DNA from: Prevotellaceae bacterium
Lineage (GTDB): Bacteria; Bacteroidota; Bacteroidia; Bacteroidales; UBA932
Assembly (NCBI GenBank): GCA_031287815.1
Contig: JAITSM010000069.1
Location: 1-39,540, forward strand
Length of the DNA stretch: 39,540 bases
Direction of reading: 5' to 3'
In this document: piece after piece, positions 3,945 to 38,533 of the stretch
Position numbering within the stretch: position 1 is the stretch's first letter
Layout of the letters: each line of letters opens with the position of its first letter
Program-made: the position numbers and the translations under genes
Notes under the pieces: model-generated
Seen by the model: only the letters and a program-made list of their open reading frames with translations
Databases searched by the model: none
Told to the model about the DNA's origin: nothing

Positions 3945-5165
3945 TTACAGTTGGCGGAAACAGCGAACGGCAGCGTTTTGTTGTGCTGCACGGCCGTGTT
4001 TGTATATTTGATCGCATGTATATGCAAGTCCGTCTTCGCGTAAATCGATTTGTAGACCATCTTCCCTGTTTTTGTCATTAGCGTACCATCCCTCAGCACT
4101 CGTAGTTAACTGGCCATTCGATACCGATCGTTCATTTGCGAATCCATAATAATCAAGTCGTGGTGAACAACTGGACGTCTTGGATCGTAGATATTGACAG
4201 ATTGTGGCATCCGATCCCATAGTTTTGGTCATGTTATCAAAATCATCAGTAACCGGCAATAACCATCCGGGTGGGCATATACCTTGTACATTGCCGGTAG
4301 AGCTACTTGACCCGCCGGCATAAGAAGCATATACTTGCGCCCATGGATAACTTCTTCCACATTCATCTTCCGTACAACCGCTCATAGCAGAACCTATAGT
4401 AGAACCATTATAGCTTGCTAATTTTACATTCTGCGCCAGCCACCACTTGCTATCTGACATCAATACAATCCTGTAATATTTGCTATCCCGGCTATCTTTT
4501 ATATAAGCTTCCCAATTCTTCGCGCCGCTGGTGCGTTGCTGGCAAAGGTGCGTAGCATCAATATATAAATCGCTTCCCTGATAAGGGCAGAAAATGCCCG
4601 GACAGTCTGTTTTATCTCTGATAGTAGTAGGCGTAATGGTCAATGCCGAAGTGGCAAGCGTTGTCCCGGTTACTGTTTGAGAGGTTGTGCCGTTTGCTGC
4701 TGCCAGGATAAACGGCGGCGTGCCACGCAAAGTATAAGTTCCGTTGTTCGCTGTTACATTCGGCGGGTAGTCGGAAACATAGGCGCACCAATTGAATTGT
4801 GCCGGCACATTGCTCAACGTTACGGTTACCGTAGCGTTGTATGTGCCGGAACTCCCTGACGTACCTTGCAGCCAAAAGCCTTTGTCGTTTCCTGTTTCCC
4901 GCGAAGGAGTGCCGACAGTAGCTATCGGCGTTCCGGAAACAGGCGCACGCATCCAACTGCCCAACGGCACATTGTCTACTATTGCCCGGTAATCTACAAA
5001 TACCCATACCTTGGAATTGTGTGTACCGGTACGCGAGCTATTCAACCATGATACATTAAATGTAACGGTGTTGCTTTTTGCACTAACCGGCGTAACTGTA
5101 ACGCCACTTTGCGCGCTTACGGCAACGCTTAAAAGCATTGCGAAAAAAAAGAAAAGTTTTTTCAT
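3945..5165 (-). CDS. Secreted paralog A: signal peptide, conserved N-domain and C-terminal Fib_succ_major (FISH)-type domain
   Basis: The signal peptide is MKKLFFFFAMLLSVAVSAQ. It shares motifs with 17389, 25678 and 37181 (V.TFxV.W...VWVxVD; FNWCAY.SDYPPN; YTLRGTPPF). The FISH hallmarks are WWLAQN, CPPGWLLP and the VRCFRQL end. Confidence 0.8.
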   Translation of the reverse strand: MKKLFFFFAMLLSVAVSAQSGVTVTPVSAKSNTVTFNVSWLNSSRTGTHNSKVWVFVDYRAIVDNVPLGSWMRAPVSGTPIATVGTPSRETGNDKGFWLQGTSGSSGTYNATVTVTLSNVPAQFNWCAYVSDYPPNVTANNGTYTLRGTPPFILAAANGTTSQTVTGTTLATSALTITPTTIRDKTDCPGIFCPYQGSDLYIDATHLCQQRTSGAKNWEAYIKDSRDSKYYRIVLMSDSKWWLAQNVKLASYNGSTIGSAMSGCTEDECGRSYPWAQVYASYAGGSSSSTGNVQGICPPGWLLPVTDDFDNMTKTMGSDATICQYLRSKTSSCSPRLDYYGFANERSVSNGQLTTSAEGWYANDKNREDGLQIDLREDGLAYTCDQIYKHGRAAQQNAAVRCFRQL

Positions 5166-5573
5166 AATATTTTTTATTAAAAGGTTTAATATTTTTCTCT
5201 ATGTTCTATTGTCTACAAGTCTATGTTCTGTTTTCGCAGCTTCAGGGTTGTTTTCAAACACAAACCTTTTTCATAAAACAACCCCTTACTGCGATTTTTT
5301 ATTCGCTGACAATTTGTATAACTTTTGTCTGTCTATATGGATTCTATCGAACAAAAATGAAACGTGAACTGATATTAACTCTCTTAAAGGTGTAGACAAC
5401 CTGGTGTAAAAGCCGACATCAACTCACGTTGAAAGATACGGCATTTATTCAGTTACACCTAAATTTGTCTACTCTTTAAGACTTGAACAAAAGCCATTGA
5501 AATGTTATTCAATCCCGATAAATAAAGAACATCATTACCGCTGCAAATATAAAACAATATTTTTAAATTCCAA
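5166..5573 (-). promoter_or_regulatory. Promoter plus ~370-nt structured leader (type II) of paralog A
   Basis: The -33 TTG (5571-5573) and -7 TATATTTG (5544-5551) are on the minus strand with a 19-nt gap. Stacked helices pair 5474-5480/5383-5389, 5465-5472/5392-5399 and 5453-5458/5404-5409. The conserved proximal hairpin is at 5236-5292. Confidence 0.6.
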
Positions 5574-5904
5574 ATATGTTTAAAAATTTTTTTTTAATTA
5601 TATGCTATTTGGAATATTTATGACTAAAAAATCTTGACGGTGTATCGCGAGCGGCCCGCCGTATGCCGTATACCGCAACCGGCTCCCCGCCCCCGCCTTT
5701 AGAAAAACCGCCTTGCCAAGCTTTAATTTTCTCACCCAATTTATTGCAACAACAAAAAACATTTTTGTTTCCGGGATGGGCTGCCTGTTGCCAAAATAAA
5801 ACAAGTTTGTTATCGTTTGTTTTTGTAAATTGAGCGCCTGTCTGTTCATAAAAAGGAGGCATGTTTTTTTGGCCTCTCCGGAAAAAATGCCTATCTTTGC
5901 CATG

Positions 5905-6014: not shown

Positions 6015-6096
6015 GGTGCGTGACATGTGCTTGTCACGGTGCGTGACATGTGCTTGTCACGATGTGTGACATGTGCTTGTCACGATGCGTGACATG
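6015..6096. repeat. 23-bp tandem repeat x3.6, each unit with an internal palindrome
   Basis: GGTGCGTGACATGTGCTTGTCAC occupies 6015-6037 and 6038-6060, with a variant at 6061-6083 and a partial unit at 6084-6096. Each unit contains GTGACA..TGTCAC. Confidence 0.85.
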
Positions 6097-6358
6097 TTTT
6101 TACCTGCCTTATGCCCTATGCGATGTGCGAGTCGCAAATCGCAAATCCTGTGCTTGGCTGTCTTCTCACCGCACGTTGGAGAGATAGTGTTTTGGCTTTT
6201 ATTATCCTGCGCCCGGAAAGTCCAAACAAATGATGAGTAAACGAGTGTAAAATACCTATTATATGGTATTGCGGGGTCTTCCGCTTGTAAGTACTTTTGC
6301 ACTGTTTTTTTTTAGTTCGTTTGAATACGGCATTTACCTTTAAAAATACAAAATATTC

Positions 6359-11346: not shown

Positions 11347-11436
11347 GACTAAAGCCTGAAGCGAGACGACTAAAGCCTGAAGCGAGACGATTAAAGCCTG
11401 AAGCGAGACGACTAAAGTCTGAAGCAAGACGATTAA
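11347..11436. repeat. 21-bp tandem repeat x4.3 (GACTAAAGCCTGAAGCGAGAC)
   Basis: Units lie at 11347-11367, 11368-11388, 11389-11409 and 11410-11430, followed by a partial unit. Confidence 0.9.
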
Positions 11437-11479
11437 AAATAAAATAAACTAAAAACCAAACATTTAAAACAAAAAAAAC

Positions 11480-12172: not shown

Positions 12173-12204
12173 CTAATGGAGAATGTTTTTTAATTATGAA
12201 TTAT

Positions 12205-12330
12205 TTCACCCACAGATTTTCTCAGATTATAACAGATTTCACAGATTTTCACCCACAGATTTTCTCAGATTATAACAGATTTCACAGATTAAATCTGTGA
12301 AATCTAAAAAAATCTGTGTCCATCTGTGGG
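12205..12330. repeat. 43-bp direct repeat x2 of CAGATT words followed by the inverted arm (AATCTGT words)
   Basis: Units at 12205-12247 and 12248-12290 are identical (ttcacccacagattttctcagattataacagatttcacagatt). Segment 12291-12330 is complementary (aaatctgtgaaatct...atctgtggg). Confidence 0.85.
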
Positions 12331-12340
12331 AGAACTTTAA

Positions 12341-12430
12341 ATATGAATTATGAATTATGAATTAGCTTGCGCCAGCAACCTCATACTTCATAACTCATAA
12401 TTCATACATCATAATTCATAATTATTTTGC
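12341..12430. repeat. 'Word' hairpin, ATGAATTAT/ATAATTCAT arms, GCGCCAGC core
   Basis: Sequence: atatgaattatgaattatgaatta-gcttGCGCCAGCaacc-tcatacttcataactcataattcatacatcataattcataatt. Confidence 0.8.
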
Positions 12431-13251: not shown

Positions 13252-16527
<3,276 letters not shown>

Positions 16528-16643
16528 AAGTTAAGAACTAAAAGTTAAAAACTAAGAGTTGGCTGGCGCTAGCTAACTTTTAGTTTTTAACTTTTAACTT
16601 TAAAAAGGCGCCAGCCCACTCTCCATTTTCCATTCTCCATTGA
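16528..16643. repeat. 'Word' hairpin (AAGTTAAGAACT arms, GGCTGGCGCTAGC core) plus GGCGCCAGCC core and TCTCCATT arm
   Basis: Segment 16528-16601 is palindromic around ggctggcgctagc. At 16602-16642, the sequence aaaaaGGCGCCAGCCcactctccattttccattctccattg is complementary to 16853-16876, on the far side of the MITE-like copy. Confidence 0.75.
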
Positions 16644-16850
16644 ATAAGCCCGAAGGGCTTGAATTTTCATAACCCCATGCAAGTGCAGCGAAGCGTAACG
16701 CAGCATGGGGCAACATGGCACTTCCTGCTTTTCGCGCGGCGCACAGGTTTTCCGCTATGCATGGACAGTGCTCCGCGCGAAAGGCAGTAGGGTCTTCGTA
16801 CCCCCGCACTGCGTACGGGGTTATGAATATTTCGCCCCTTCGGGGCTTTA
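16644..16850. repeat. Structured MITE-like repeat, copy 2 (inverted relative to 291..506)
   Basis: Its reverse complement aligns with 291-506 along its length. The two internal hairpins differ in sequence but remain self-complementary (CCGCAGGC..GCCTGCGG versus CCCCG..CGGGG). Confidence 0.7.
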
Positions 16851-16916: not shown

Positions 16917-17388
16917 TTGCAATTAAAAAATATTGTTTTATATTTGCACCGTTCTTTGACGTATTGAAAAGGATATAAAAAAAAATATCGCTTTAACTTT
17001 TATTCTGCGTATACTTCGAAATCAGGAAAATTTCAACTATGTCCGAATATAAGTCTGAGCAACCTCGCCAAGAGTGGATGGGGGTTGTAATACTTATCGA
17101 CATAGTGGGTTTCCTGAACCTCGAAGTATGATAAATATAACACCCCTTTCCACTTTTGGTTTTTTAGTGGAATTGAGAAAAAATCACCATAAAAGTTAAA
17201 GAAACAAATTGTAGAAAATGTGTGTTAAAATTTTCTGCAATGATTGGCAGCGGATAAAAATCGCAGCAGGGGGTTGTTTATAAAGTTGGTTTGTGTTTGC
17301 AAAACAGCCCCAAAGCTGCGAAAACAGAGCATAGACTTGTAGACAATAGAACATAGACAAAAATATTAACCATAAATAAAAAAATGCT
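16917..17388 (+). promoter_or_regulatory. Promoter plus ~440-nt structured leader (type I) of paralog B
   Basis: TTG (16917-16919) and TATATTTG (16939-16946) have a 19-nt gap. Helices are ATACTTCGA (17011-19)/TCGAAGTAT (17121-29), CAGGAAA (17023-29)/TTTCCTG (17110-16), CTATGTC/GACATAG and ATAAGT/ACTTAT. Loop CCAAGAGTGGA (17068-78) pairs with TCCACTTTTGG (17149-59), followed by T6. The proximal hairpin is at 17263-17319. Confidence 0.65.
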
Positions 17389-18306
17389 ATGAAAAAAAAT
17401 TTCTTTCTTTTCGCCATGCTTGCAAGCATGGCAGCAAACGCCACCGTAAAGGTAACGCCGCTTTCTACGGATTATTCCACCAACAAAGTAACCTTTAAAG
17501 TGGAATGGACTGGCACCCCCTCTGCGCCCCACAATAATCGTGTGTGGGTATGGATAGATTTTTGTCCGGTAGCAGGCACAACGCCGGCAACTTCTTTTTC
17601 TACCGCTACCATTTCCAACCCCGCTAAAACAGGCGGGAACGGCACGATTACCGGAGCCACCACGCGCGGATTTTTCATTGAATACAGCAGCGCCACCAAC
17701 GCCGGTACTACCGTTACCGCCACCCTGAGCAACGCCGCCGGCAAATTCAACTGGTGCGCCTACGGCAGCGATTTCCCGCCGAATGCGGTGGACAACTCCG
17801 GCGGCGGCTATGACTTGAGGGGCACGCCGCCGTTTATTATCAACGGCTCGATTGAATGGAGTTCCTACACTTATTCCGGCGGTACGATAAATACCCTCAC
17901 CGACGCTACCGGCTGTCCGGGCGTGTTGTGCGGCAAGGACGGCGAGTCGGCAGGATTATTGAACTGCTGCATTCCCGGAACAACGAATTGCAGCGGGACG
18001 TGTAAAACTACCGGGACATATACATCCAATGACGGCGCGTGCACCAATGCCTGCAATACTGCATATGTACAGGTGAGAAACCAATGCGGAAATGTAATAA
18101 ATGCGACAAGCAGTACATATTATAATAGTGGTTGCCGTATAGGATGTGCTGCGAGCTGGAGCCAAAGCTGCCGGGACTGGAACCAAGACTGTAGCTGGAT
18201 CATCGAAGAGCTTGACAAATGCCAATACTGCTGTACCGCCCAAGGATATCGGTACTATAATCTTGTTTCACGCGAGGGCTCTTCCGATTGTTCTTGTTGT
18301 AACTAA
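17389..18306 (+). CDS. Secreted paralog B: signal peptide, conserved N-domain and Cys-rich C-terminal module (no FISH domain)
   Basis: It shows MKKNFFLFAMLASMAANA, then VTFKVEWTG..NNRVWVWIDFCPV, FNWCAYGSDFPPN and YDLRGTPPFI. The last ~130 aa contain about 24 Cys and end in ..SSDCSCCN. Confidence 0.8.
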   Translation: MKKNFFLFAMLASMAANATVKVTPLSTDYSTNKVTFKVEWTGTPSAPHNNRVWVWIDFCPVAGTTPATSFSTATISNPAKTGGNGTITGATTRGFFIEYSSATNAGTTVTATLSNAAGKFNWCAYGSDFPPNAVDNSGGGYDLRGTPPFIINGSIEWSSYTYSGGTINTLTDATGCPGVLCGKDGESAGLLNCCIPGTTNCSGTCKTTGTYTSNDGACTNACNTAYVQVRNQCGNVINATSSTYYNSGCRIGCAASWSQSCRDWNQDCSWIIEELDKCQYCCTAQGYRYYNLVSREGSSDCSCCN

Positions 18307-18953: not shown

Positions 18954-20123
18954 ATGGAAATCAAAAACGAGCTGAACAGGTTATCTTGTTGCGTTATTAT
19001 TCCTGTGTATAATAATGCCGGTACGCTGGCGGAGGTGATTGCCGGCGTGCAACGTTATGCCGGCGCCGTGATTGTGGTGAACGACGGCTCAACGGACGCT
19101 ACGCCGGAAATCCTTTCCGCCATCCCGTCAATTACCGTGCTGACGCATCCCGCAAACAGGGGCAAGGGGGGCGCCCTGCGTACCGGCTTCCGGTACGCCT
19201 TGCACAACGGCTTCCGGTATGCCATTACGCTGGACGCCGACGGGCAGCATTTCCCGGAAGATATTCCGCTTTTTGCCGAAGCGATAGCAAAGGGCTCCGG
19301 CGCATTGGTGCTCGGGGCGAGAAGGCTGAAGCAGGAAAATATGCCCGGAAAAAATACGTTTGCCAACAGGTTCTCCAATTTCTGGGTATGGGTGGAAACG
19401 GGAAAGCGGCTGGAAGATACGCAGTCGGGGTTCCGCGCCTATCCGCTCCGGGCGTTTGCGGACGCGAAGTTTTTTACGCGCCGGTATGATTTTGAACTGG
19501 AAATCCTCGTCCGTTCCGCATGGAAGGGGCTTCCGGTGATCACCGTTCCTGTCCGGGTATTTTATGCGCCGGAGGGGAAACGGGTATCTCATTTCAAGCC
19601 CCTGCGCGATTTTATGCGGATAAGCCTCCTCAATGTTTTCCTGGTATTGCTGGCGCTCCTGTGGTTTCGCCCTTTTGCCTTTGTCCGCAGCCTCCGCCGG
19701 GAAAATCTCCGGAAATGGTTCCGCGAACATATCCTCCAGTCTTCCGAACCCAACCGCAAGATAACCCTCTCGGTCATGCTGGGGGTATTTATGGGCATTG
19801 TTCCCGCATGGGGATGGCAGATGCTGGCGGCTTTTTCGCTGGCGCACCTCCTGCGGCTGAATAAGGCGATAGCCGTAGTGGCGTCCAATATCAGCGTTCC
19901 GCCGATGATTCCGCTGATTTTGTTTGGAAGTTTTTCCTGCGGCGCCTGGGCGCTGGGGCGCCCGCTTGCCCTGTCGCTGCATACGGCGTCTTTCGAGGCG
20001 GTGTACCGGGATTTGTTACAGTATATCGTCGGGAGCTTTGTGCTGGCCGTCCTGTGCGCACTGGCGGCCGGAGCGGTTACCGGGTTGCTGTTATACTTTT
20101 TTAGAAAACCGCCATTGAAATGA
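18954..20123 (+). CDS. Family-2 glycosyltransferase fused to a DUF2062-type membrane domain
   Basis: GT2 motifs are IIPVYNNAGTL, VVNDGSTDAT and TLDADGQH. The C-terminal TM region resembles DUF2062 (LGVFMGIVPAWGWQMLAAF...NKAIAVVASNISVPPMIP). The ATG at 18954 is preferred over the TTG at 18918 because a TACCTTTG box sits at 18921-18928. Confidence 0.8.
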   Translation: MEIKNELNRLSCCVIIPVYNNAGTLAEVIAGVQRYAGAVIVVNDGSTDATPEILSAIPSITVLTHPANRGKGGALRTGFRYALHNGFRYAITLDADGQHFPEDIPLFAEAIAKGSGALVLGARRLKQENMPGKNTFANRFSNFWVWVETGKRLEDTQSGFRAYPLRAFADAKFFTRRYDFELEILVRSAWKGLPVITVPVRVFYAPEGKRVSHFKPLRDFMRISLLNVFLVLLALLWFRPFAFVRSLRRENLRKWFREHILQSSEPNRKITLSVMLGVFMGIVPAWGWQMLAAFSLAHLLRLNKAIAVVASNISVPPMIPLILFGSFSCGAWALGRPLALSLHTASFEAVYRDLLQYIVGSFVLAVLCALAAGAVTGLLLYFFRKPPLK

Positions 20124-23100
20124 TACGGATATTTATAGCCTGCTATTATTTTTTCCGGACGCGCCGCATTTTGTTTTATGCACTGGGCGGCTTATTGACG
20201 GCGACAATGATTTGCCTGGCCTGGCAAATCGGATGGCGGGAAGATATTAACAGCCTCCTGCCGCAAACCGAAGATACGCGTTCTATCGGAACGGTTTTTA
20301 AGCACGTCCGGGTAAAAGATAAAATCGCCGTCCTCATCACTTCCAGAGACACGGCGCACCCGGCGGCGCCCGAAACGATGATACAGGGCTGTGAAGCCTT
20401 TTTTTCGCGGCTGCTGCAAACCCCTGCGGGGAGATCGCATATCAGGAAAGTGCAGTCTACGGTAGATAGCCGGCTGGCGGAATCGTTGCATCAGTACGTC
20501 ATGGAGCAGCTGCCGGCCTTCCTCGACGACGCCGGCTACGCCCGCCTGGACAGCTTGCTGCAGCCGCCACAGCTGGAGCAACAGCTGGCGCAACAATATA
20601 GCCGGCTGCTCTCGCCGCTGGGTATGGTTTCTTCCAAATTCATCGCCGCCGACCCGCTCAACCTTTCGGGAAATATCCTGAAATCACTGGAAGCGTTGGA
20701 GCCGGACAGCCGCTACGCCCTGTACGACGGGCATATCTTTTCGGACGACAAACGGTACCTGGCGGCGTTCATTTCGCCGGTTTTCGGCGCCGGCGAGCTT
20801 TCCCGCAACGAGGCGCTGGTGGAAGAAATAGAACGCACGATTGCTGCGGTGGAGCAACAATATCCCGCATTGTCGGCCGCTTATTTCGGCGGCATTCCCG
20901 TAGGCATCTACAACGCCCGGCAGATTAAATCCGACGCGGCGGCGGCAATGGCGGTAACCGCGCTCCTCATCGGGCTGGTTATTATTTTTGCCTTCCGCCG
21001 GAAGTCGGCGGTGTGGCTGATTTTGCTGCCGGTGTTGATGGGCGGGCTCTTTGCGCTGGCGTTGATGTATGTGATCCAGGGCGCGATTTCTACCATCGCC
21101 GTCGGCGCGGGGTCTGTCATTCTCGGGGTGGCGTTGAGCTACTCCATCCACGTGTTTTGCCATTCGCTCCATGCGCCTTCGGCGGAACAGCTCATTCGCG
21201 AACTCGCCTACCCGATGACCATCGGGAGCTTTACTACCATTGCCGCCTTTGCCGGCCTTGCTTTCATGCACACGGAGGCGTTGCGTGACTTCGGGCTGTT
21301 TTCCTGTTTTACATTGATTGGAACGACCCTGTGCTGCCTGGTTTTCATGCCCCACCTGCTGACGTTCCATCGCCCGCCGCCCCGCCGCCTGATGCGCCGG
21401 ATAGAAAAATGGACGGCCTACCCGTTTGAAAAAAACGGCGTGTTGATTCTGTTAATCGTCCTGGTTTTTGGCGTATCGTGCTTTTTCTGCGGAAAAGTAA
21501 CCTTCAACGCCGACATGGAGCGGCTGAACTACCTGCCCGCCCCTTTGGCGCAAGCGGAAAAGGTATTGAAAGACGTTTTCCAGGGCGACGCCCCGACCGT
21601 GTACCTGGTGGCTGTCGGCGCTACGCCCGACGAGGCGTTGCGCCATTACCGGCAGGCGGCGGAAAAATGCCAGTCATTGAAAGAAGCATCGCTGATTAAG
21701 GACTATTCGTCGGCGCATCATTTACTGCTTCCGGCAGCCGAACAGCAGGAGCGCATCGACCGCTGGAACGCTTTCTGGACGCCCGGAAAACGCGCATGGC
21801 TCCAAACCAACCTGCCGGCAATGGCGGAAAAATACAAATTCAAAGCCCATAGCTTTGACGGCTTCCTGCAGCGCCTGGACAAGGATTACCAACCGGTGGA
21901 CTATATGCAGCCGGGCTTCCTCGATACGTTTGTCCTGAACGAATGGATAGAGGACGCCGGCGGGCTGCCTGTGGCGATTATCCAGGCGCAGCTGCCCGAA
22001 GAAAACAAAGAGCGGGTATACCAAGCCTTCGAAAGCGACAGGCACCTCGTTATCCTCGACAAAACCTATTTCGCCGGCAAATTTTCCACATTAGTCAATG
22101 AGGATTTTAATGCGCTGTTGTTTATTGTGTCGGTCATCGTATTTTTATCCATCCTCGCGTCGTACGGGAGAATAGAAATCGCCGTCGTAACCTTCCTGCC
22201 CATGCTGGTCAGCTGGGTCATTATACTGGGGCTGATGGCGCTTTTCGGCATAGAATTTAATGTAATCAACATTATCATCTCTACCTTTATCTTCGGTATC
22301 GGGGATGATTTCAGCATTTTTGTCAGCGACGGCCTGTTGCTGGAATATAAAACAGGGCAAAAAATCATCGCGTCCCACAAAACGGCCATTTTCTTTTCGG
22401 CCTTCGCCGTCATAGCGGGCATGGGCGCCATGATTTTTTCGAAACACCCGGCGCTGTATTCCATCTCCGTGACTTCCGTGATAGGCATGCTGGCCATCCT
22501 GCTTATTTCCTATACCGTCCAGCCCTTTCTTTTCAAACTTTTTATCACCGGGCGCACGGCGAAACGGAAATTCCCGCATACCTGGTACAGCCTGCTGATT
22601 ACCGTAACGGCATTAACCGTTTTTGTTGCCGGGAGCCTTTTCCTCACGCTGGCAAGCTATATCCTCTTTCTCCTTCCGGTACGGAAAAAAGCCAAACAGG
22701 CGTTTTTCCATTATTTATTATATGGCTTCGGCTTCCTGCAACTGTATGTGATGCCCAATGAAAAGAAAGTGCGGCAAAACCCCTCGCGTGAAACCTTTGA
22801 AAAGCCGGCGATGATTATTGCCAATCATCAATCGGTGATAGATATTATGCAGGCGCTGACGTGGCATCCCAAAATTATTATGGTTACCAAAGCATGGGTC
22901 AGCCGGTCGCCGCTGTTCGGGAAAATAGCCCGCTTCGCCGGCTTTGTGGACATCACCAAAGGCTATGAGCCGGCGGTGGCGCACATCCGGCAGTATATGG
23001 ACGACGGCTATTCGGTGGTGATATTTCCCGAAGGCACGCGCTCGCCCGACGGCAAATTACAGCGGTTTCACAAGGGCGCCTTTTATTTGGCGGAAGCCCT

Positions 23101-23983
23101 GAAAGCCGACATTGTCCCGGCGCTGCTTTACGGGCACGGGCAAGCCATGTCGAAAAATGATTCCCTGTATTTGAAAGACGGCGTGCTGGCGACGAAAATC
23201 CTGCCCCGCATGCCCTACCGCGAAGGGGAAACGTACCAGGAACGGTACAAACAGGCGGCGCGCCTCTTTAAAAGGGAACATGCAGCGTTGGCCGATGAAA
23301 TAGACCGCTCCGGAAATCCCTACTACCGCTACAAGCTGATGAAAAACTACCTCTACAAGGGGCCTGTCCTCGAATGGTACCTGCGGGTAAAGGCGGCGAT
23401 GGAAAAGAATTACCGGCTGTTCGAGCAATTAGTCCCGGCAAAGGCCGTCATCACCGATATAGGCTGCGGATACGGCTTTTTGTCCTACATGCTGGCTTTC
23501 CGGTCGGGCGAACGGCGCATTACAGGCATCGACTACGACGCCGAAAAGATTGCCACCGCGCAAAATAACTTCTCCAAAACCGACCGGCTGCAATTCATCG
23601 CAGCCGATGCGTCGGCCTTCGCCTTCGCCCCTTCCGACGTATTTATCCTGAACGACGTGTTGCATTACCTGCCGGAAGAAAAACAGCACGCCGTGTTGAT
23701 GCAATGCGTAAAGAATTTGAACGCCGGCGGGAAAATCATCATTCGCGACGGCGACAGGGAACAGCGCAGGAAACATGCGCTCACCCAATGGTCGGAGTTC
23801 TTTTCCACCCGCCTGCTGAAGTTCAACCGGGCGGACTATGCCCTGCATTTCATCTCCACCACCTCTCTGGAAGCGTTTGCGCAACGCCACCACTTATCGC
23901 TGTCGATTGTGGAAAACAGCAAGTACAGCTCTAACAGGATACACGTGCTTAGCCGGGAGCCGGGAGTGAAGAGTGAAGGGTGA
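20120..23983 (+). CDS. Tri-domain fusion: MMPL/RND-like exporter, PlsC-type lysophospholipid acyltransferase and SAM-dependent methyltransferase
   Basis: It has two multi-TM bundles (about aa 270-410 and 680-800). The acyltransferase motifs are HX4D (NHQSVID) and FPEGTRS. The methyltransferase motif I is ITDIGCGYGFLSYMLA. Its start overlaps the GT2 stop (ATGA at 20120-20123). Confidence 0.8.
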   Translation: MIRIFIACYYFFRTRRILFYALGGLLTATMICLAWQIGWREDINSLLPQTEDTRSIGTVFKHVRVKDKIAVLITSRDTAHPAAPETMIQGCEAFFSRLLQTPAGRSHIRKVQSTVDSRLAESLHQYVMEQLPAFLDDAGYARLDSLLQPPQLEQQLAQQYSRLLSPLGMVSSKFIAADPLNLSGNILKSLEALEPDSRYALYDGHIFSDDKRYLAAFISPVFGAGELSRNEALVEEIERTIAAVEQQYPALSAAYFGGIPVGIYNARQIKSDAAAAMAVTALLIGLVIIFAFRRKSAVWLILLPVLMGGLFALALMYVIQGAISTIAVGAGSVILGVALSYSIHVFCHSLHAPSAEQLIRELAYPMTIGSFTTIAAFAGLAFMHTEALRDFGLFSCFTLIGTTLCCLVFMPHLLTFHRPPPRRLMRRIEKWTAYPFEKNGVLILLIVLVFGVSCFFCGKVTFNADMERLNYLPAPLAQAEKVLKDVFQGDAPTVYLVAVGATPDEALRHYRQAAEKCQSLKEASLIKDYSSAHHLLLPAAEQQERIDRWNAFWTPGKRAWLQTNLPAMAEKYKFKAHSFDGFLQRLDKDYQPVDYMQPGFLDTFVLNEWIEDAGGLPVAIIQAQLPEENKERVYQAFESDRHLVILDKTYFAGKFSTLVNEDFNALLFIVSVIVFLSILASYGRIEIAVVTFLPMLVSWVIILGLMALFGIEFNVINIIISTFIFGIGDDFSIFVSDGLLLEYKTGQKIIASHKTAIFFSAFAVIAGMGAMIFSKHPALYSISVTSVIGMLAILLISYTVQPFLFKLFITGRTAKRKFPHTWYSLLITVTALTVFVAGSLFLTLASYILFLLPVRKKAKQAFFHYLLYGFGFLQLYVMPNEKKVRQNPSRETFEKPAMIIANHQSVIDIMQALTWHPKIIMVTKAWVSRSPLFGKIARFAGFVDITKGYEPAVAHIRQYMDDGYSVVIFPEGTRSPDGKLQRFHKGAFYLAEALKADIVPALLYGHGQAMSKNDSLYLKDGVLATKILPRMPYREGETYQERYKQAARLFKREHAALADEIDRSGNPYYRYKLMKNYLYKGPVLEWYLRVKAAMEKNYRLFEQLVPAKAVITDIGCGYGFLSYMLAFRSGERRITGIDYDAEKIATAQNNFSKTDRLQFIAADASAFAFAPSDVFILNDVLHYLPEEKQHAVLMQCVKNLNAGGKIIIRDGDREQRRKHALTQWSEFFSTRLLKFNRADYALHFISTTSLEAFAQRHHLSLSIVENSKYSSNRIHVLSREPGVKSEG

Positions 23984-24106
23984 AGAGTGAAGAGTGAAGG
24001 GTGAAAAGGGTGAAGAGTGAAGAGTGAAGGGTGAAGAGTGAAGAGTGAAGAGTCACCCTTCACCGAGATACTCATCACCCATCACCCTTCACTCTTCACC
24101 TTTCAC
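23965..24106. repeat. 'Word' hairpin of GTGAAGA/GTGAAGG words and their complement, spanning two convergent stop codons
   Basis: The left arm (23965-24052) is gtgaagagtgaagggtgaagag... The right arm (24052-24106) is tcacccttcac...cttcactcttcacctttcac. The stop of the 20120 gene (23981-83) and the radC stop (24103-05) both lie inside the arms. Confidence 0.8.
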
Positions 24107-25064: not shown

Positions 25065-25484
25065 AATTTAGGGGACTACATAAATAATTTAGGGGACTAC
25101 ATAAATAATTTAGGGGACTACATAAATGATTTAGGGGACTACCTAAATGATTTAGGGGACTACCTAAATGATTTAGGGGACTACCTAAATGATTTAGGGG
25201 ACTACCTAAATGATTTAGGGGACTACCTAAATAATTTAGGGGACTACATAAATGATTTAGGGGACTACATAAATGATTTAGGGGACTACCTAAATGATTT
25301 AGGGGACTACCTAAATGATTTAGGGGACTACATAAATAAATTAGGGGACTACATAAATGATTTAGGGGACTACATAAATGATTTAGGGGACTACATAAAT
25401 GATTCAGGGGACTACCTAAATGATTCAGGGGACTACATAAATGAATTAGGGGGCTACATAAATGAATTAGGGGACTACATAAAA
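25065..25484. repeat. 21-bp tandem array, ~20 units (consensus RATTTAGGGGACTACMTAAAT)
   Basis: The 420-bp array has an exact 21-bp period. Variant units occur in runs (ACATAAAT versus ACCTAAAT; AATTT, GATTT, GATTC, GAATT). There are no unique spacers. Confidence 0.95.
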
Positions 25485-25677
25485 TAGAGGAAGGACAAGT
25501 TTTTTGTACGGGGATTAAAATATGCCGGACGGCTTAGAACGCCAAAGCGTAAATCCAAAACAAAAAAACCAATGGCGGCAAAAAATGTTTGGTTGCCGAA
25601 GAACGCTTCGCCCTTGACGCTTTACCCTTCACCCTTGACGCTTTACCATTGACGCTTTACCGCTTCACTTACCTTTT

Positions 25678-26637
25678 TTATCTTACACACAATAATGGTT
25701 GATAGTAGTTTCTCCCGCAATTATTGATTTTCCACCATCTCCATTGCCCGCGATACACACCACATGACGTAGCTAGCAATTCACCAAAGTACCATAATTT
25801 CATCGTGGTGCCGCTGCAATCATTGCACACATGGTTATTCGACGCGCATCCATCGTTTATCCACGCACCGGTCGGGCCCTCTACACCCCAGATAGCGGTA
25901 CGCTCAGTGTTCATTATTTGGACTTCCGTAAGGGTCGGGTAGCGCCAACCGGATGGACAGCCGGTCGTACCATCACAGTTAGCATGTGAAGGCATGACAG
26001 CGTTTTTAATTTCTATTCCTAAACCAACATAAGTACTCGCTTCGTCAGCTATCGCATCCCTGCAATGAGTGCTAAACGCTATTAACCCTTCCACACATAT
26101 TCCGCCATTGTGTACTTCATCTCGTCCTACGCCTCCGGGACAGCCTGTCGCGTCGGTCAAAGAAGTAATAGTCGTTACGGCATATTTGTCATTATTTACA
26201 GTCGTACCATTTACAATAAACGGTTTTGTTCCTTTTAACGTATAGCTTCCGTTGTTATATGATATGGCGTTGGGCGGGTAGTCGCTGCCATAGGCGCACC
26301 AGTTGAATTGCCCTGCTGCGTTGTTCAGTTTGGCGGTAACGGTCGAAGGATTGGTGGTTACATAAAAGCCGCGCATATTGCCGGTAACGGTTAGTATACT
26401 GCCGGCGGTAGCCGTAGCCCCGCTGATAACGGCTTTTTCAAATGTGCCCGAAGAAGTTCCCGACACCGGGCACAAATCCACAAACACCCACACGCGGTCG
26501 TTGGCGACGTCGCCTGTCCATTCCACGCGGAAGGTTACGGTTTTGTTGATATAATCCGTCGAGAGCGGCGTGATGTACACATTGGCGCTTGCGGTTATGC
26601 CGGCAAGCATTGCTAAAAAGAAAATTTTTGTTTTCAT
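25678..26637 (-). CDS. Secreted paralog C: signal peptide, conserved N-domain and divergent FISH-type C-terminal domain
   Basis: I place the start at the internal ATG (MKTKIFFLAMLAGITASA). Motifs are VTFRVEWTGDVANDRVWVFVDLCPV, FNWCAYGSDYPPN, YTLKGTKPFI and CPSGWRYPT, and it ends in LLCVR. Confidence 0.8.
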   Translation of the reverse strand: MKTKIFFLAMLAGITASANVYITPLSTDYINKTVTFRVEWTGDVANDRVWVFVDLCPVSGTSSGTFEKAVISGATATAGSILTVTGNMRGFYVTTNPSTVTAKLNNAAGQFNWCAYGSDYPPNAISYNNGSYTLKGTKPFIVNGTTVNNDKYAVTTITSLTDATGCPGGVGRDEVHNGGICVEGLIAFSTHCRDAIADEASTYVGLGIEIKNAVMPSHANCDGTTGCPSGWRYPTLTEVQIMNTERTAIWGVEGPTGAWINDGCASNNHVCNDCSGTTMKLWYFGELLATSCGVYRGQWRWWKINNCGRNYYQPLLCVR

Positions 26638-26972
26638 AAAAATGTTTTTTAAGTTAATATTGTTTTTCGCAGCCTTTGGGGTTGTTTCCAAACACAAACT
26701 TTTTCCCATAAAACAACCCCTTGCTGCGAATTTTTATTCGCTGCCAATCCCCATCCGTTCCATTTTTACTTAAGGTACTATAGACAAAAAATGAAACGTG
26801 AACTTATTTTGCCGTGTATAGAGGTTCTGAGCAACCTTGTCACAAAAACAAACTAAATCCACGTTAGTTCATGGTATTCTCTTTGTGACAGTAGAAATTG
26901 CTCAGATTCCTATACACAGAAAAAAGAACGTTAATAACGCTGCAAATATATTACTTTATTTTTTAATTGCAA
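26638..26972 (-). promoter_or_regulatory. Promoter plus ~300-nt structured leader (type II) of paralog C
   Basis: On the minus strand, TTG (26970-72) and TATATTTG (26943-50) have a 19-nt gap. Helices pair 26910-17/26814-21, 26898-905/26827-34 and 26882-90/26838-46. Loop AACGTGGA (26858-65) pairs with TTCACGTT (26795-802), next to a U-tract (26786-94). The proximal hairpin is at 26669-26727. Confidence 0.65.
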
Positions 26973-27001
26973 CTGTTTTTGAAAAAATTTTTGTCGGGGA
27001 A

Positions 27002-28358: not shown

Positions 28359-28443
28359 AATTATGAATTATAGATTATGAATTATGGGTTATGAATTATG
28401 GGTTATGAGTTGGCTGGCGCCGGAGTTTATACTTCATAATTCA
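28359..28443. repeat. 'Word' hairpin (ATGAATTAT/ATGGGTTAT words, GGCTGGCGCCGG core)
   Basis: It fills the gap between the stop of the 28441 gene and the hisS start. The right arm overlaps the stop codon at 28441-43. Confidence 0.7.
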
Positions 28444-32016: not shown

Positions 32017-32091
32017 GGTGAAAGATGGGATTCGAACCCACGACCTCCAGAGCCACAATCTGGCGCTCTAACCAACTGAGCTACGATCACC
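32017..32091 (-). tRNA. tRNA-His (GTG) with G-1; the acceptor stem has two adjacent mismatches
   Basis: The sense sequence is G-GTGATCG-TA-GCTCAGTTGGTTAGAGC-G-CCAGA-TTGTGGC-TCTGG-AGGTC-GTGGG-TTCGAAT-CCCAT-CTTTCAC-C. The D, anticodon and T arms are canonical. Pairs 5:68 (T:T) and 6:67 (C:T) do not form. Confidence 0.8.
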
Positions 32092-36732: not shown

Positions 36733-37180
36733 TTGCCATTAAAAAATATTGTTTTATATTTGCACCGGTTATTATGTGCTCTTTGACATTCTGAAATAGA
36801 TATAAAAAATATATATCGCTTTAACTTTTATTCTGCGGATACCAGAAATCTGGAAAATTTCAATCACGTACGAATAATAAGTAAAAGCAACCTCGCCAAG
36901 AGTGGATGTGGGTTGTTCTGCTTATTTACGTGATGGGTCTTCCAGAACCTCTGGTATCAATAAGCATAACGCCCATTCCACTCTTGGTTTTTTAGTGGAA
37001 TCAGGAAAAAATCACCATAAAAGTTGAAGAAACAAATTGCAGAAAACGTTTATTAAAAACTTCTGCAATGATTGGCAGCGGATAAAAATTCGCAGCAAGG
37101 GGTTGTTTTATAAAGTTGGTTTGTGTTTGCAAAACAACCCCAAGGCTGCAAAAATAATAACAATTTAAAAATTTACTTTT
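36733..37180 (+). promoter_or_regulatory. Promoter plus ~420-nt structured leader (type I) of paralog D
   Basis: TTG (36733-35) and TATATTTG (36755-62) have a 19-nt gap. Helices are GATACCAGA (36838-46)/TCTGGTATC (36950-58), CTGGAA/TTCCAG, CACGTA/TACGTG and AATAAG/CTTATT. Loop CCAAGAGTGGA (36896-906) pairs with TCCACTCTTGG (36977-87), followed by T6 (36988-93). Further hairpins are at 37037-44/37061-68 and 37092-37149. Confidence 0.65.
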
Positions 37181-38323
37181 ATGAAAACAATTCTTTTCTT
37201 TTTTACAATGCTTATAAGCATTGCAGCAGGCGCACAGGTAACAAATGTTACACCAATTAGCGCAAATTATACGGACAAAACCGTGTCTTTTCGCGTGTGG
37301 TGGAACGCCGGCTCGCGCGATGTTACGCACCTCTCCAAAGTATGGGTGTGGGTAGATTATATCACGGTAAACAGTAACAACACCACTTCAGGAAATTTGT
37401 GGACACGCGCCACTGCGGGAACAGTTTCCGGCGGCGTAATTTCTTACGACGGCAGCAACCGGCAAGGGTTTTGGTTGCAAGGCAACAGCGGCAGCTATAG
37501 CGCTACCGTTAGCGTTAAACTAAACATTACCGCAAGCAAATTCAATTGGTGTGCCTACGTGTCCGACTATCCGCCGAATATAACACTAAATAACGGAACT
37601 TATACTTTCAGCGGCACGCCGCCATTTATATTGACTGCCACTAGTGGAGCCACTCAAACGGTAACCGGAACAACGCTTGCCACTTCTGCATTGACTATTA
37701 CGCCCACAACTATTATGGATAAAACAGCCTGTCCGAGCGTTTTCTGCCCTTATCAGGGCAGTGATTTATTTATTGATGCTACGCATCTTTGCCAACAGCG
37801 CGCCGGCGGCGCAAAAAATTGGGAAGCGTGGATAAAAGACACGCGAGATAAGGAATTGTATAGAATTGTTTTGATGCCTGACGAACTTTGGTGGACAGCT
37901 GAAGAAATGAGATACGATGCTTCAGCTACAAAACAAAGCTACAAATGTCCGACTGGCGCACAGCGGACAATTTATAATCGTCCTGTTGTCGCATGTCCAG
38001 CAGGATGGATACTTCCATCAGTAGCTCAATTTACCTATATACACAATATAGCTAGCGAAGAAGAACTACTGGCTGCTAATACATATGCTGTATACGGAAC
38101 AGGAATCGACTTCTATGGGTATGCTGTAATCCCAGATCCCAGTAGAGCTGATGGTGCGGACGAAACGATCCCAACAGGATGCATCTATGACATAACATGG
38201 TTCCCTAACGCTTGGGAGTCTATGGAGGGAAGACGAACTTTCTGTTGGGACCGAACTACTGCGCATCCCCCCGTATGCTACGAGAACCATCTCAGTTGGA
38301 ATCAAGTCCGCTGCATTCGCTAA
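37181..38323 (+). CDS. Secreted paralog D: signal peptide, conserved N-domain and divergent FISH-type C-terminal domain
   Basis: It starts MKTILFFFTMLISIAAGAQ. It is about 80% nt-identical to paralog A through ..YRIVLMPDELWW and then diverges. It has CPAGWILP and ends in VRCIR. Confidence 0.8.
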   Translation: MKTILFFFTMLISIAAGAQVTNVTPISANYTDKTVSFRVWWNAGSRDVTHLSKVWVWVDYITVNSNNTTSGNLWTRATAGTVSGGVISYDGSNRQGFWLQGNSGSYSATVSVKLNITASKFNWCAYVSDYPPNITLNNGTYTFSGTPPFILTATSGATQTVTGTTLATSALTITPTTIMDKTACPSVFCPYQGSDLFIDATHLCQQRAGGAKNWEAWIKDTRDKELYRIVLMPDELWWTAEEMRYDASATKQSYKCPTGAQRTIYNRPVVACPAGWILPSVAQFTYIHNIASEEELLAANTYAVYGTGIDFYGYAVIPDPSRADGADETIPTGCIYDITWFPNAWESMEGRRTFCWDRTTAHPPVCYENHLSWNQVRCIR

Positions 38324-38407
38324 GTATAATTTGAACCAAATAATAAAATAGAGGCGTGCTACTGCTGCAACTGAAACCTATACAAATGAATTAAAATATC
38401 AGACAAC

Positions 38408-38533
38408 CGAAATGTGTACGTACGCAATCGAAATGTGTACGTACGCAATTGAAATGGGGACGTACACATTCGCAATGGGGACGTACACATTTGAAATGGG
38501 GACGTACACAATGGCGATGGGAACGATAATAAA
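38408..38533. repeat. 21-bp tandem array x6 (CGAAATGTGTACGTACGCAAT x2, then TGAAATGGGGACGTACACATT-type units)
   Basis: Units start at 38408, 38429, 38450, 38471, 38492 and 38513. The core GGGGACGTACA resembles the GGGGACTACA core of the 25065-25484 array. Confidence 0.85.

Follow-up and report, generated by a model that had tools for sequence, protein, structure and literature searches.

A covarying leader RNA with two alternative folds lies upstream of secreted FISUMP-family paralogs in uncultured Prevotellaceae and may act as a transcription attenuator

The DNA analysed here (the window) is a 39,540-nt stretch from an uncultured Prevotellaceae bacterium (assembly GCA_031287815.1, contig JAITSM010000069.1, positions 1 to 39,540 of the forward strand), and the element under study is a leader at positions 16917-17388. 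This segment consists of a Bacteroidota-type promoter and a leader of ~435 nt, followed at 17389 by the ATG of a gene for a secreted protein, paralog B. The window contains four such leaders, each preceding a paralog; copies B and D belong to one type (type I) and copies A and C to another (type II), the distance from the promoter to a shared 3' module being about 350-370 nt in type I and about 250-300 nt in type II. The four paralogs have a signal peptide and an N-terminal domain of ~175 aa in common, their C-terminal parts vary, and paralogs A and D match TIGR02145 (FISUMP/Fib_succ_major domain).

An earlier sequence-only reading of this DNA had described the promoter of copy B, with TTG and TATATTTG boxes 19 nt apart, and the same arrangement is found in copy D. 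Its further statement that the promoter is nearly identical at all four loci holds for copies A, B and D; in copy C several spacer positions differ. A 26-nt core of the promoter recurs at 36739-36764 (+) and 5542-5567 (-), where no match is expected by chance, and a terminator scan placed a terminator-like hairpin at 16834-16846, just 5' of the copy B promoter.

Downstream of the promoter, the leader of copy B forms a long hairpin in which we count five helices (H1-H5) rather than the four originally described. Comparison with copy D bore out the compensatory changes reported for H1 (Table 1), H2 (CAGGAAA/TTTCCTG in B and CTGGAA/TTCCAG in D) and H3 (CTATGTC/GACATAG in B and CACGTA/TACGTG in D), as well as the conservation in both copies of the junctions AAT/AACC and ATTTCAA/TGGGT and of the apical CAACCTCGCCAAGAGTGGATG.GGGTTG. 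Identity between B and D is 59% (33/56) in the paired columns of H1-H3 and 88% (141/160) in the remaining columns. Nine pairs have both letters altered and remain paired, no pair has only one letter altered, and 6 of the 29 pairs are unscored (pair absent or gap in one copy) through a register shift in the H1 alignment. As also reported, no open reading frame (ORF) is conserved between the copies: the ATG at 17039 that starts the 30-codon ORF of B is missing from D. Single-sequence folds were more stable than those of shuffled sequences (z = -5.0 for copy B and z = -7.2 for copy D).

In all DNA examined, comprising the window genome, five related Prevotellaceae metagenome-assembled genomes (MAGs) and two metagenome contigs (JGI, ENA), we identified 48 hairpins, all on the strand of the downstream gene. 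The copies are all from a single narrow lineage of uncultured bacteria and include many paralogs, which means that cell counts in the alignments are not independent. A scan of species-representative genomes with the 3'-module pattern returned at least 64 loci, of which about 40 are real; among the matches listed, the real loci all come from the "Prevotellaceae bacterium" MAGs JAIRLT01, JAIROQ01 and JAITKG01, and those from other taxa (Bacillota, Verrucomicrobia and others) were dismissed as chance, having neither promoter nor match to R1, a covariance model built on the type-I hairpin. By construction, copies B and D score 139 bits with R1; in the window the model also recovered copies C and A, with no further match, and its E-values (Table 1) are rough owing to a short calibration. 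Over all loci examined it recovered 41 copies, none of them in the chance loci outside the Prevotellaceae. Loci picked by protein similarity alone (L072, L073, L074 and L076) all have the leader on the strand of the gene (4/4), L075 being left out of this count since it starts 17 nt before its gene and has no upstream DNA; the same loci contributed three more leader copies, each 5' of a further paralog. A metagenome scan with ATCGCTTTRACTTTTATTCT gave two matches, both rejected as chance with no leader features, and a viral-contig scan with the 3'-module pattern gave five chance matches in GT-rich coding repeats.

The helices covary in alignments larger than the original pair of copies, and homologous leaders in related genomes retain them, in favour of the sequence-only reading. 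For the 13 type-I copies (alignment A2), RNAalifold returned a consensus fold in which a helix, P1, encloses the long hairpin, with 94.7% of cells paired vs 40-46% in a slid control (pairing partners shifted by 1-3 columns), double changes in 31 of 69 pairs and 0/500 shuffles as high. When both types were aligned (41 copies, alignment A5), 93.3% of cells were paired vs 34-44% when slid, with double changes in 40/45 pairs, in an alignment that was fitted to the covariance model and is somewhat favourable to it. Double-change cells in A5 numbered 466 vs 123 in shuffles, and all four Watson-Crick pair types occur at most H1-H3 positions. Such variety at single positions would require many separate compensations, despite the paralogs among the copies. 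P1, which joins block 1 to block 6, comprises 13 pairs and is 99.4% paired in A2, its changes being confined to A-U/G-U.

The sense of the RNA is set by its wobble pairs. G.U replacements, which would be A/C mismatches on the opposite strand, are common in P1, in H5, in the pairing of loop X with its downstream partner X', and in the 3' module; two U.G pairs of H2 are nearly or wholly invariant (40/40 and 37/40 copies). On the same loci, R1 scores 139 bits in the sense direction vs 17-19 bits in antisense. The G.U pairs and this strand asymmetry indicate that the structure belongs to the transcript running from the promoter into the paralog. Rfam 15, searched over the whole window at gathering thresholds, returned a tRNA gene at 32017-32090 (-) and no match to the leader; leaders B, A and D, searched in E-value mode (E up to 10), gave best scores of 15-29 bits against thresholds of 33-200, with E of 0.3-9. 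The covariation, strand and Rfam results thus uphold the view of a functional, structured, sense-strand leader RNA without a known family; that the leader is a functional, structured RNA of the sense strand is nearly certain.

A second set of pairings uses part of the same strands. In type I, apical loop X pairs with the downstream segment X' in 92.9% of cells, with double changes in 6/11 pairs (A2); in type II, where X reads AAACGTGGAyTTTgt and X' ..AAAAyTTCACGTTT, the outer part covaries. The linker 3' of H1 (ATAAGT..) repeats the 5' strand of H4, and the adjacent ..CACCC.. matches the 3' strand of H5. Through this complementarity, block 3 (X with the 3' strands of H5 and H4) can pair with block 4 (the linker, CACCCC and X') as one long hairpin, designated T, whose tip is a GGGTT/AACCT mini-hairpin built from both conserved 3' junctions. 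For the segment from X to the U-run, minimum free energy (MFE) folding yields T in all type-I copies (13/13; -26 to -46 kcal/mol) and in all type-II copies folded (20/20; -17.5 to -37 kcal/mol vs -9 to -16 shuffled). On A2, its 40 pairs, taken from MFE folds, are 90.7% paired vs 42-50% slid, with 15 double-change pairs and 0/500 shuffles as high; one column pair, 106/161 (UA 7, CG 4), covaries specifically in the T fold.

The T helix is followed by U-rich sequence. Over 37 copies, the 12 nt 3' of T have 6.8 U on average and a longest run averaging 5.2, against a background U content of 32%. For 24 of these rows, all type II, X' was placed by a filter that demanded TTTT no more than 16 nt away, and about four of them are misplaced. 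The 13 type-I rows, placed by alignment alone, have 4-8 U of 12 and runs of 3-7. A simple terminator scanner (loops of 3-8 nt) misses T because of its large apical region.

Upstream of T, block 1 (GCTTTAACTTTTATTC) is complementary to block 2 (GAATATAAGT..AGC, from 17045). Within the 5' part, all 13 type-I copies have the resulting 1:2 helix as their MFE fold (-13 to -22 kcal/mol vs -8 to -11 shuffled), with 97% of cells paired vs 35-45% slid; type II retains it with other letters, for example TTTTATTC/GAATAAAA, or GGCTTTTGTTCA/TGAATAAATGCC in copy A. The 3' strands of H4 and H5 are shared, being paired either in the long hairpin or in T, and both sets are about 90-95% paired with double changes. 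We term the combination of 1:2 and T the OFF fold and that containing the long hairpin the ON fold. When the RNA is cut off at the U-run, the MFE fold of the 13 type-I copies is OFF in 6, ON in 5 and undecided in 2, and in these calculations the two folds appear roughly isoenergetic up to that point. Once blocks 5 and 6 are included, copy B at full length has ON as its MFE fold, and copy D still retains a T-type helix in its own. X' can also form a local hairpin with X'' in block 5 (86% paired), a feature of the full-length MFE fold in copy B; X was preferred to X'' as the main partner of X' (93% vs 86% paired; 6 vs 1 double changes), and X':X'' is kept as the read-through pairing.

Further helices flank this region. 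The stem of the small hairpin P0 varies in letters with its pairing kept (GATGTT/AACATC in L053; GGCATAT/ATATGCC in L018 and L061), as does P5, which is specific to type I, in L012 (CAGAAACAA/TTGTTTCTG) and in L013. The 3' module, common to all leaders, has 15 pairs, one of which covaries (CG 14 / UA 11), together with many one-sided changes from GC to GU; its P6 loop motif, GTTTGTGTTTG, occurs in the window only in the four leaders. Since the reverse complement of the module reads as a stem plus T-run, a terminator on the opposite strand was considered and discarded: the one-sided GC to GU changes are on the sense strand and nothing converges.

Table 1. Coordinates of the leader RNA, its parts and the associated genes in the window
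Feature	Position	Strand	Detail
Promoter, copy B	16917..16946	+	-33 TTG 16917-16919; 19-nt spacer; -7 TATATTTG 16939-16946
P0, small hairpin GATAT-A8-ATATC	16972..16989	+	Present in MFE fold
Block 1, GCTTTAACTTTTATTC	16990..17005	+	Partner: block 2 (OFF) or block 6, helix P1 (ON)
Long hairpin H1-H5, 121 nt	17010..17130	+	RNAalifold and pair counts; R1 139 bits
H1, copy B, TATACTTCGA / TCGAAGTATG	17010-17019 / 17121-17130	+	
Block 2, GAATATAAGTCTGAGC and H5 5' strand	17045..17066	+	Partner: block 1 (OFF) or block 3, H4/H5 (ON)
T hairpin (OFF fold, proposed terminator stem)	17067..17159	+	Block 3 with block 4; MFE of segment
Block 3, X with H5 and H4 3' strands	about 17067-17102	+	
Apical loop X, CCAAGAGTGGA	17068-17078	+	
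Block 4, linker ATAAAT.., CACCCC, X' TCCACTTTTGG	X' at 17149-17159	+	
U-run TTTTTT	17160..17165	+	Directly 3' of T hairpin
Block 5, X'' AGTGGAA and A-run GAGAAAAAATCACC	17166..17188	+	Can pair X' and U-run in read-through RNA
Block 6, ATAAAAGTTAAAG, P1 3' strand	17189..17201	+	Closes entire domain in read-through RNA
P5 hairpin TTGTAGAAAAT...ATTTTCTGCAA	17209..17240	+	Type I only; MFE fold
3' module	17246..17324	+	Common to all leaders; small A-loop hairpin, then hairpin P6
P6 hairpin	GCAGC 17264-17268 with GCTGC 17315-17319	+	Invariant loop GTTTGTGTTTG at 17289-17299
Secreted paralog B, 305 aa	17389..18306	+	Signal peptide and shared N-terminal domain
Copy D leader, type I	36733..37180	+	Long hairpin 36838-36958; X 36896-36906; T about 36895-36987
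Copy D promoter	36733-36762	+	TTG 36733-36735; 19-nt spacer; TATATTTG 36755-36762
H1, copy D, GATACCAGA / TCTGGTATC	36838-36846 / 36950-36958	+	
Copy D U-run	36988-36993	+	
Copy D P1	36819-36831/37017-37029	+	
Copy D P6	37102-37159	+	
Gene D	37181-38323	+	
Copy C leader, type II	26710..26990	-	Hairpin 26806-26928; R1 51.2 bits, E about 8e-11 (rough); T hairpin -24.6 kcal/mol
Gene C	25678-26709	-	
Copy A leader, type II	5166..5590	-	Hairpin 5373-5493; R1 30.4 bits, E about 2e-5 (rough); T hairpin -23.9 kcal/mol
Gene A	3945-5165	-	With FISUMP domain

We propose that the leader is a transcription attenuator in which the long hairpin serves as antiterminator, T as terminator and the 1:2 helix as anti-antiterminator, a reading to which we give slightly better than an even chance. 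Transcribed from its own Bacteroidota-type promoter, it would act in cis as a switch 5' of each secreted FISUMP-family paralog, with six conserved blocks swapping partners. The OFF state, possible once the RNA reaches the U-run, would combine 1:2 with the 3:4 pairing as a T hairpin of 25-33 bp followed by the U-run, and would thus resemble an intrinsic terminator. In the ON state, blocks 2 and 3 would form the apical part of the long hairpin, extended by H1-H3 to about 45 bp. After read-through, block 5 would take block 4 and block 6 would take block 1 as P1. A second promoter (TTG-N17-21-TAnnTTTG) after the main one was found in 0/38 leaders, and expression of a paralog gene that has no promoter of its own therefore needs read-through; GTTTGTGTTTG was considered as a second -7 box and rejected, since the canonical box would be TAnnTTTG behind a 19-nt spacer and this motif is TGnnTTTG behind one of 16 nt.

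The model also explains why some letters are conserved and others drift. Letters that serve two partners are nearly invariant because they take part in two alternative pairings, and H1-H3, which would be paired in one fold only, are for that reason free to drift by compensation, as between B and D. In the OFF fold, the tandem triple U.G of H2 would be redistributed, its U's pairing with GAAAU and its G's with AACC. The sequence-only reading did not see why the fixed junctions and the apical loop are conserved, namely that a second, terminator-like fold pairs them anew. T would terminate transcription, and some input would set the ratio of OFF to ON. No conserved leader peptide was found, the short ATG frames near the 5' end not being in a conserved frame, so that ribosome position cannot be the sensor. 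Candidate inputs, in descending order, are a protein bound to the 5' half or to the internal loops of the hairpin, a small ligand, kinetic or temperature effects, and a trans-acting RNA on loop X. A stronger version, in which the leader is a new class of effector-sensing switch (responding to a ligand or a dedicated RNA-binding protein) and one signal gates a large secreted FISUMP-domain family, we consider unlikely. Through its fast-evolving H1-H3, each locus might have an identity or threshold of its own, with only subsets of paralogs expressed at once.

Several points weigh against attenuation. Termination at the U-run is something we infer from the sequence; T is unusually long for an intrinsic terminator, with an apical region of roughly 40 nt, and type II has 2-3 nt between helix and U-run. 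The T pairs were derived from MFE folds of the same sequences and are favoured in the slid control, while 1:2 is supported by the complementarity of conserved blocks and hardly covaries within type I. Some ON energies are underestimated through register errors in the forced pairs. The local ON hairpin should zip first during transcription, which leaves the route to OFF without a factor unexplained, and X:X' taken alone could be a tertiary (pseudoknot) contact within one static fold. Finally, the copies represent a single narrow lineage and include many paralogs.

The last of the structural objections leads to a different account, in which the long hairpin, an X:X' pseudoknot, P1 and P6 make up a single compact domain of the 5' untranslated region (UTR) that acts post-transcriptionally, by stabilising the mRNA, providing a processing site or binding a protein that controls translation or localisation of the paralog, the U-run being a linker that pairs with the A-run. 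Its nested part equals the full-length MFE fold of copy B, the pairing and double changes of X:X' fit a pseudoknot as well, the U-run does have a conserved A-run partner 3' of it, and P6 adjoins the A-rich start region. Such a domain leaves unexplained why the linker repeats the H4 5' strand and continues into a match for the H5 3' strand, giving a continuous helix of ~29 pairs, and why blocks 1 and 2 are complementary; on geometric grounds, moreover, a linker of ~20 nt would have to span an intact hairpin of ~45 bp for X to meet X'. We regard a static domain as possible but rather improbable. The same strong hairpin and U-run, preceded by a promoter, would also make a plausible small RNA (sRNA) gene, whose product would be a stable trans-acting RNA of ~210 nt, and the paralog mRNA would then arise only incidentally, when termination leaks; a few orphan or tandem copies without a nearby family gene (L053 2081-2209, L024 4853-4977) are in line with this. 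An independent sRNA gene is hard to reconcile with the lack of a second promoter 5' of the gene, with the conservation of blocks 5 and 6, P5 and P6 beyond the U-run, blocks 5 and 6 even pairing back upstream, and with the existence of dozens of copies that differ in H1-H3 and have one gene each, and we think it quite unlikely.

The multiplicity of the element, its mosaic copies (B has the hairpin type of D and the 3' tail of A) and the insertion of other small palindromic elements in leaders L072, L037, L008 and L034 might instead be read at the level of DNA, as a repeat akin to a miniature inverted-repeat transposable element (MITE), a segment that inverts between X and X', or a recombination cassette by which paralogs acquire the same 5' end, none of them with an RNA function. 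Orientation and spacing to promoter and gene, however, are fixed in 48/48 copies; the arms differ by compensatory changes instead of sharing sequence, and G.U pairs are frequent and even invariant, in keeping with the strand asymmetry of R1. In its fixed orientation, its fixed distance to the gene and its strand asymmetry, the leader is unlike a transposable element. An inverton was rejected since the promoter is not between inverted repeats, lying outside the X/X' arms and about 120 nt upstream of X, since these arms have G.U-type mismatches, and since an inverted X-X' segment occurs in 0/48 copies. A MITE was rejected as well: all 48 copies are on the strand of the gene and at a fixed distance from it, and the arms vary from copy to copy by compensation. 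An explanation at the DNA level is, in our judgement, scarcely credible.

Attenuation by two exclusive folds remains our preferred reading, and the genes under its presumed control form an expanded family. Of 47 hairpins tallied, about 36 with enough downstream DNA have a gene with the shared N-terminal domain 150-290 nt 3' of the hairpin. Homologues detected for this protein family number at least 666, and the best 120 all come from these MAGs or from metagenomes. In L007, L013 and L059, a small lipoprotein-like ORF (MKKILLFLCLLLLAASC...) is the first after the leader, and in L013 some 670 nt separate the hairpin from the N-domain gene, so that the link between the leader and a single protein family is not strict. 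In L008 and L034, an insert with CCCCCTAACCCCCAAAGGGG(G/A)A just after the 3' module displaces the paralog ATG, and no N-domain gene was found within the examined downstream DNA. A connection with diversity-generating retroelements, of which the FISUMP domain is a reported target, was set aside because the leader lies at the 5' end, no screen of the window for a reverse transcriptase having been made.

Leaders may also exchange and lose parts. Copy B combines the hairpin type of D with a tail between 3' module and ATG (CAGAGCATAGACTTGTAGACAATAGAACATAGACAAAAATATTAA; 17325-17375) like that of type-II copy A (5175-5228, -), and ATAGAC-related repeats occur in L061 and L043; these mosaics suggest recombination among leaders. 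Hairpins without a recognisable 3' module were seen at L053 2081-2209 and 1615-1751, L024 4853-4977 and L054 5620-5757, those of L053 in tandem and that of L024 an orphan, and may be decaying or rearranged leaders. AT-rich palindromes with a GC core (AGTTAAGAACTAAGA..GTTGGCTGGCGCCAGC..TCTTAACT) are inserted between 3' module and ATG in L072 and L037. They occur at 205-287, 12332-12423, 16524-16596 and 28360-28421 in the window, at about 7820-7860 in L072 and at the 3' end of L037, and score as long terminator-like hairpins after genes (e.g. secA, 16544-16591); this element looks like a mobile terminator of the repetitive extragenic palindrome (REP) or MITE kind. A palindromic insert rich in ACAGAT/ATCTGT lies between 3' module and ATG in L074 (about 2560-2640), similar to an exact 43-nt tandem duplication, rich in CACAGATTT units, at 12204-12290 of the window.

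Other repeats in the window include intergenic arrays of 21-nt units at 25066-25483 (also 25606-25647), 38403-38525 and 11347-11437, and of 23-nt units at 6017-6097. Two of the arrays lie just 3' of paralogs, with 20 copies of ATTTAGGGGACTACATAAATG after gene C and about five after gene D, and their units differ from array to array. A 7-nt repeat, GAGTGAA (12.6 copies, 23964-24053), spans the stop of a 1287-aa ORF (20120-23983) that encodes an MMPL/acyltransferase/methyltransferase fusion, and a 118-nt unit is tandemly duplicated with 83% identity at 768-1006, overlapping the start of ORF 917-1684.

If the attenuator model is correct, the leader would be a large regulatory RNA, with a switch of about 210 nt in a leader of 280-440 nt, for which sequence comparison alone supports two conformations, and would belong to a phylum with few documented cases of transcription attenuation. 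It would control one of the most expanded secreted-protein families of its host genomes and point to a regulator or signal governing the cell-surface repertoire of these uncultured Prevotellaceae. The natural variants amount to a ready mutational series in which only single-state helices vary, an unusually clear signature of a bistable RNA, and the leader is accordingly a good test case for work on switch detection and co-transcriptional folding.

Among known systems, the protein-controlled leaders of Bacillus (pyr/PyrR, trp/TRAP, infC/L20, rplJL/L10) are similar in having a terminator-like hairpin with U-run and an exclusive antiterminator that shares one of its strands. In the pyr leaders, an upstream third pairing can free the terminator strand, as 1:2 would do here. 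For the infC leader, one report describes long-range pairing within a leader of about 200 nt (PMC1865079), and for TRAP another describes protein binding that blocks the antiterminator so that the terminator forms (PMC3064811). In contrast to these leaders, the present one belongs to Bacteroidota and has no sequence or Rfam match to them; it has a proposed five-helix antiterminator of ~45 bp, a proposed terminator stem of 25-33 bp and blocks 5 and 6 that would lock the read-through state, and it precedes a secreted-protein family with dozens of copies per genome instead of biosynthetic or ribosomal operons. A PyrR-like loop was considered, as type-I loop CCAAGAGUGG resembles the PyrR site, and was rejected: Rfam gave no PyrR match, the type-II loop differs and the loop covaries with X'.

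The alternating 1:2 / 2:3 / 3:4 topology, with 3:4 followed by the U-run, is that of the four-segment trp-type attenuator, which differs in that the present leaders have no conserved leader peptide. T-boxes likewise combine a leader of 200-400 nt, a first long hairpin of stacked covarying helices with conserved internal loops, and a choice between terminator and antiterminator. Unlike them, the present leader gave no Rfam T-box match (E up to 10), has no T-box sequence or specifier-loop context and precedes secreted FISUMP-family genes, not aminoacyl-tRNA synthetase or amino-acid genes; T-boxes are not known to be typical of Bacteroidota. With regard to riboswitches, the leader contains a switch resembling an expression platform, and the Rfam scans matched no known aptamer class. 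The leader would thus represent a previously uncatalogued RNA family that follows an attenuator-type logic already known.

Within Bacteroidales, a parallel is provided by the capsular-polysaccharide loci of Bacteroides, whose long 5' UTRs are acted on by locus-specific, NusG-like UpxY antiterminators. There, too, many paralogous surface loci per genome each have their own promoter and a long leader under premature-termination control. The UpxY loci, however, are long operons with their own UpxY/UpxZ at the 5' end, whereas each leader described here precedes a single gene without a regulator gene, and its control element would be an RNA with two supported folds.

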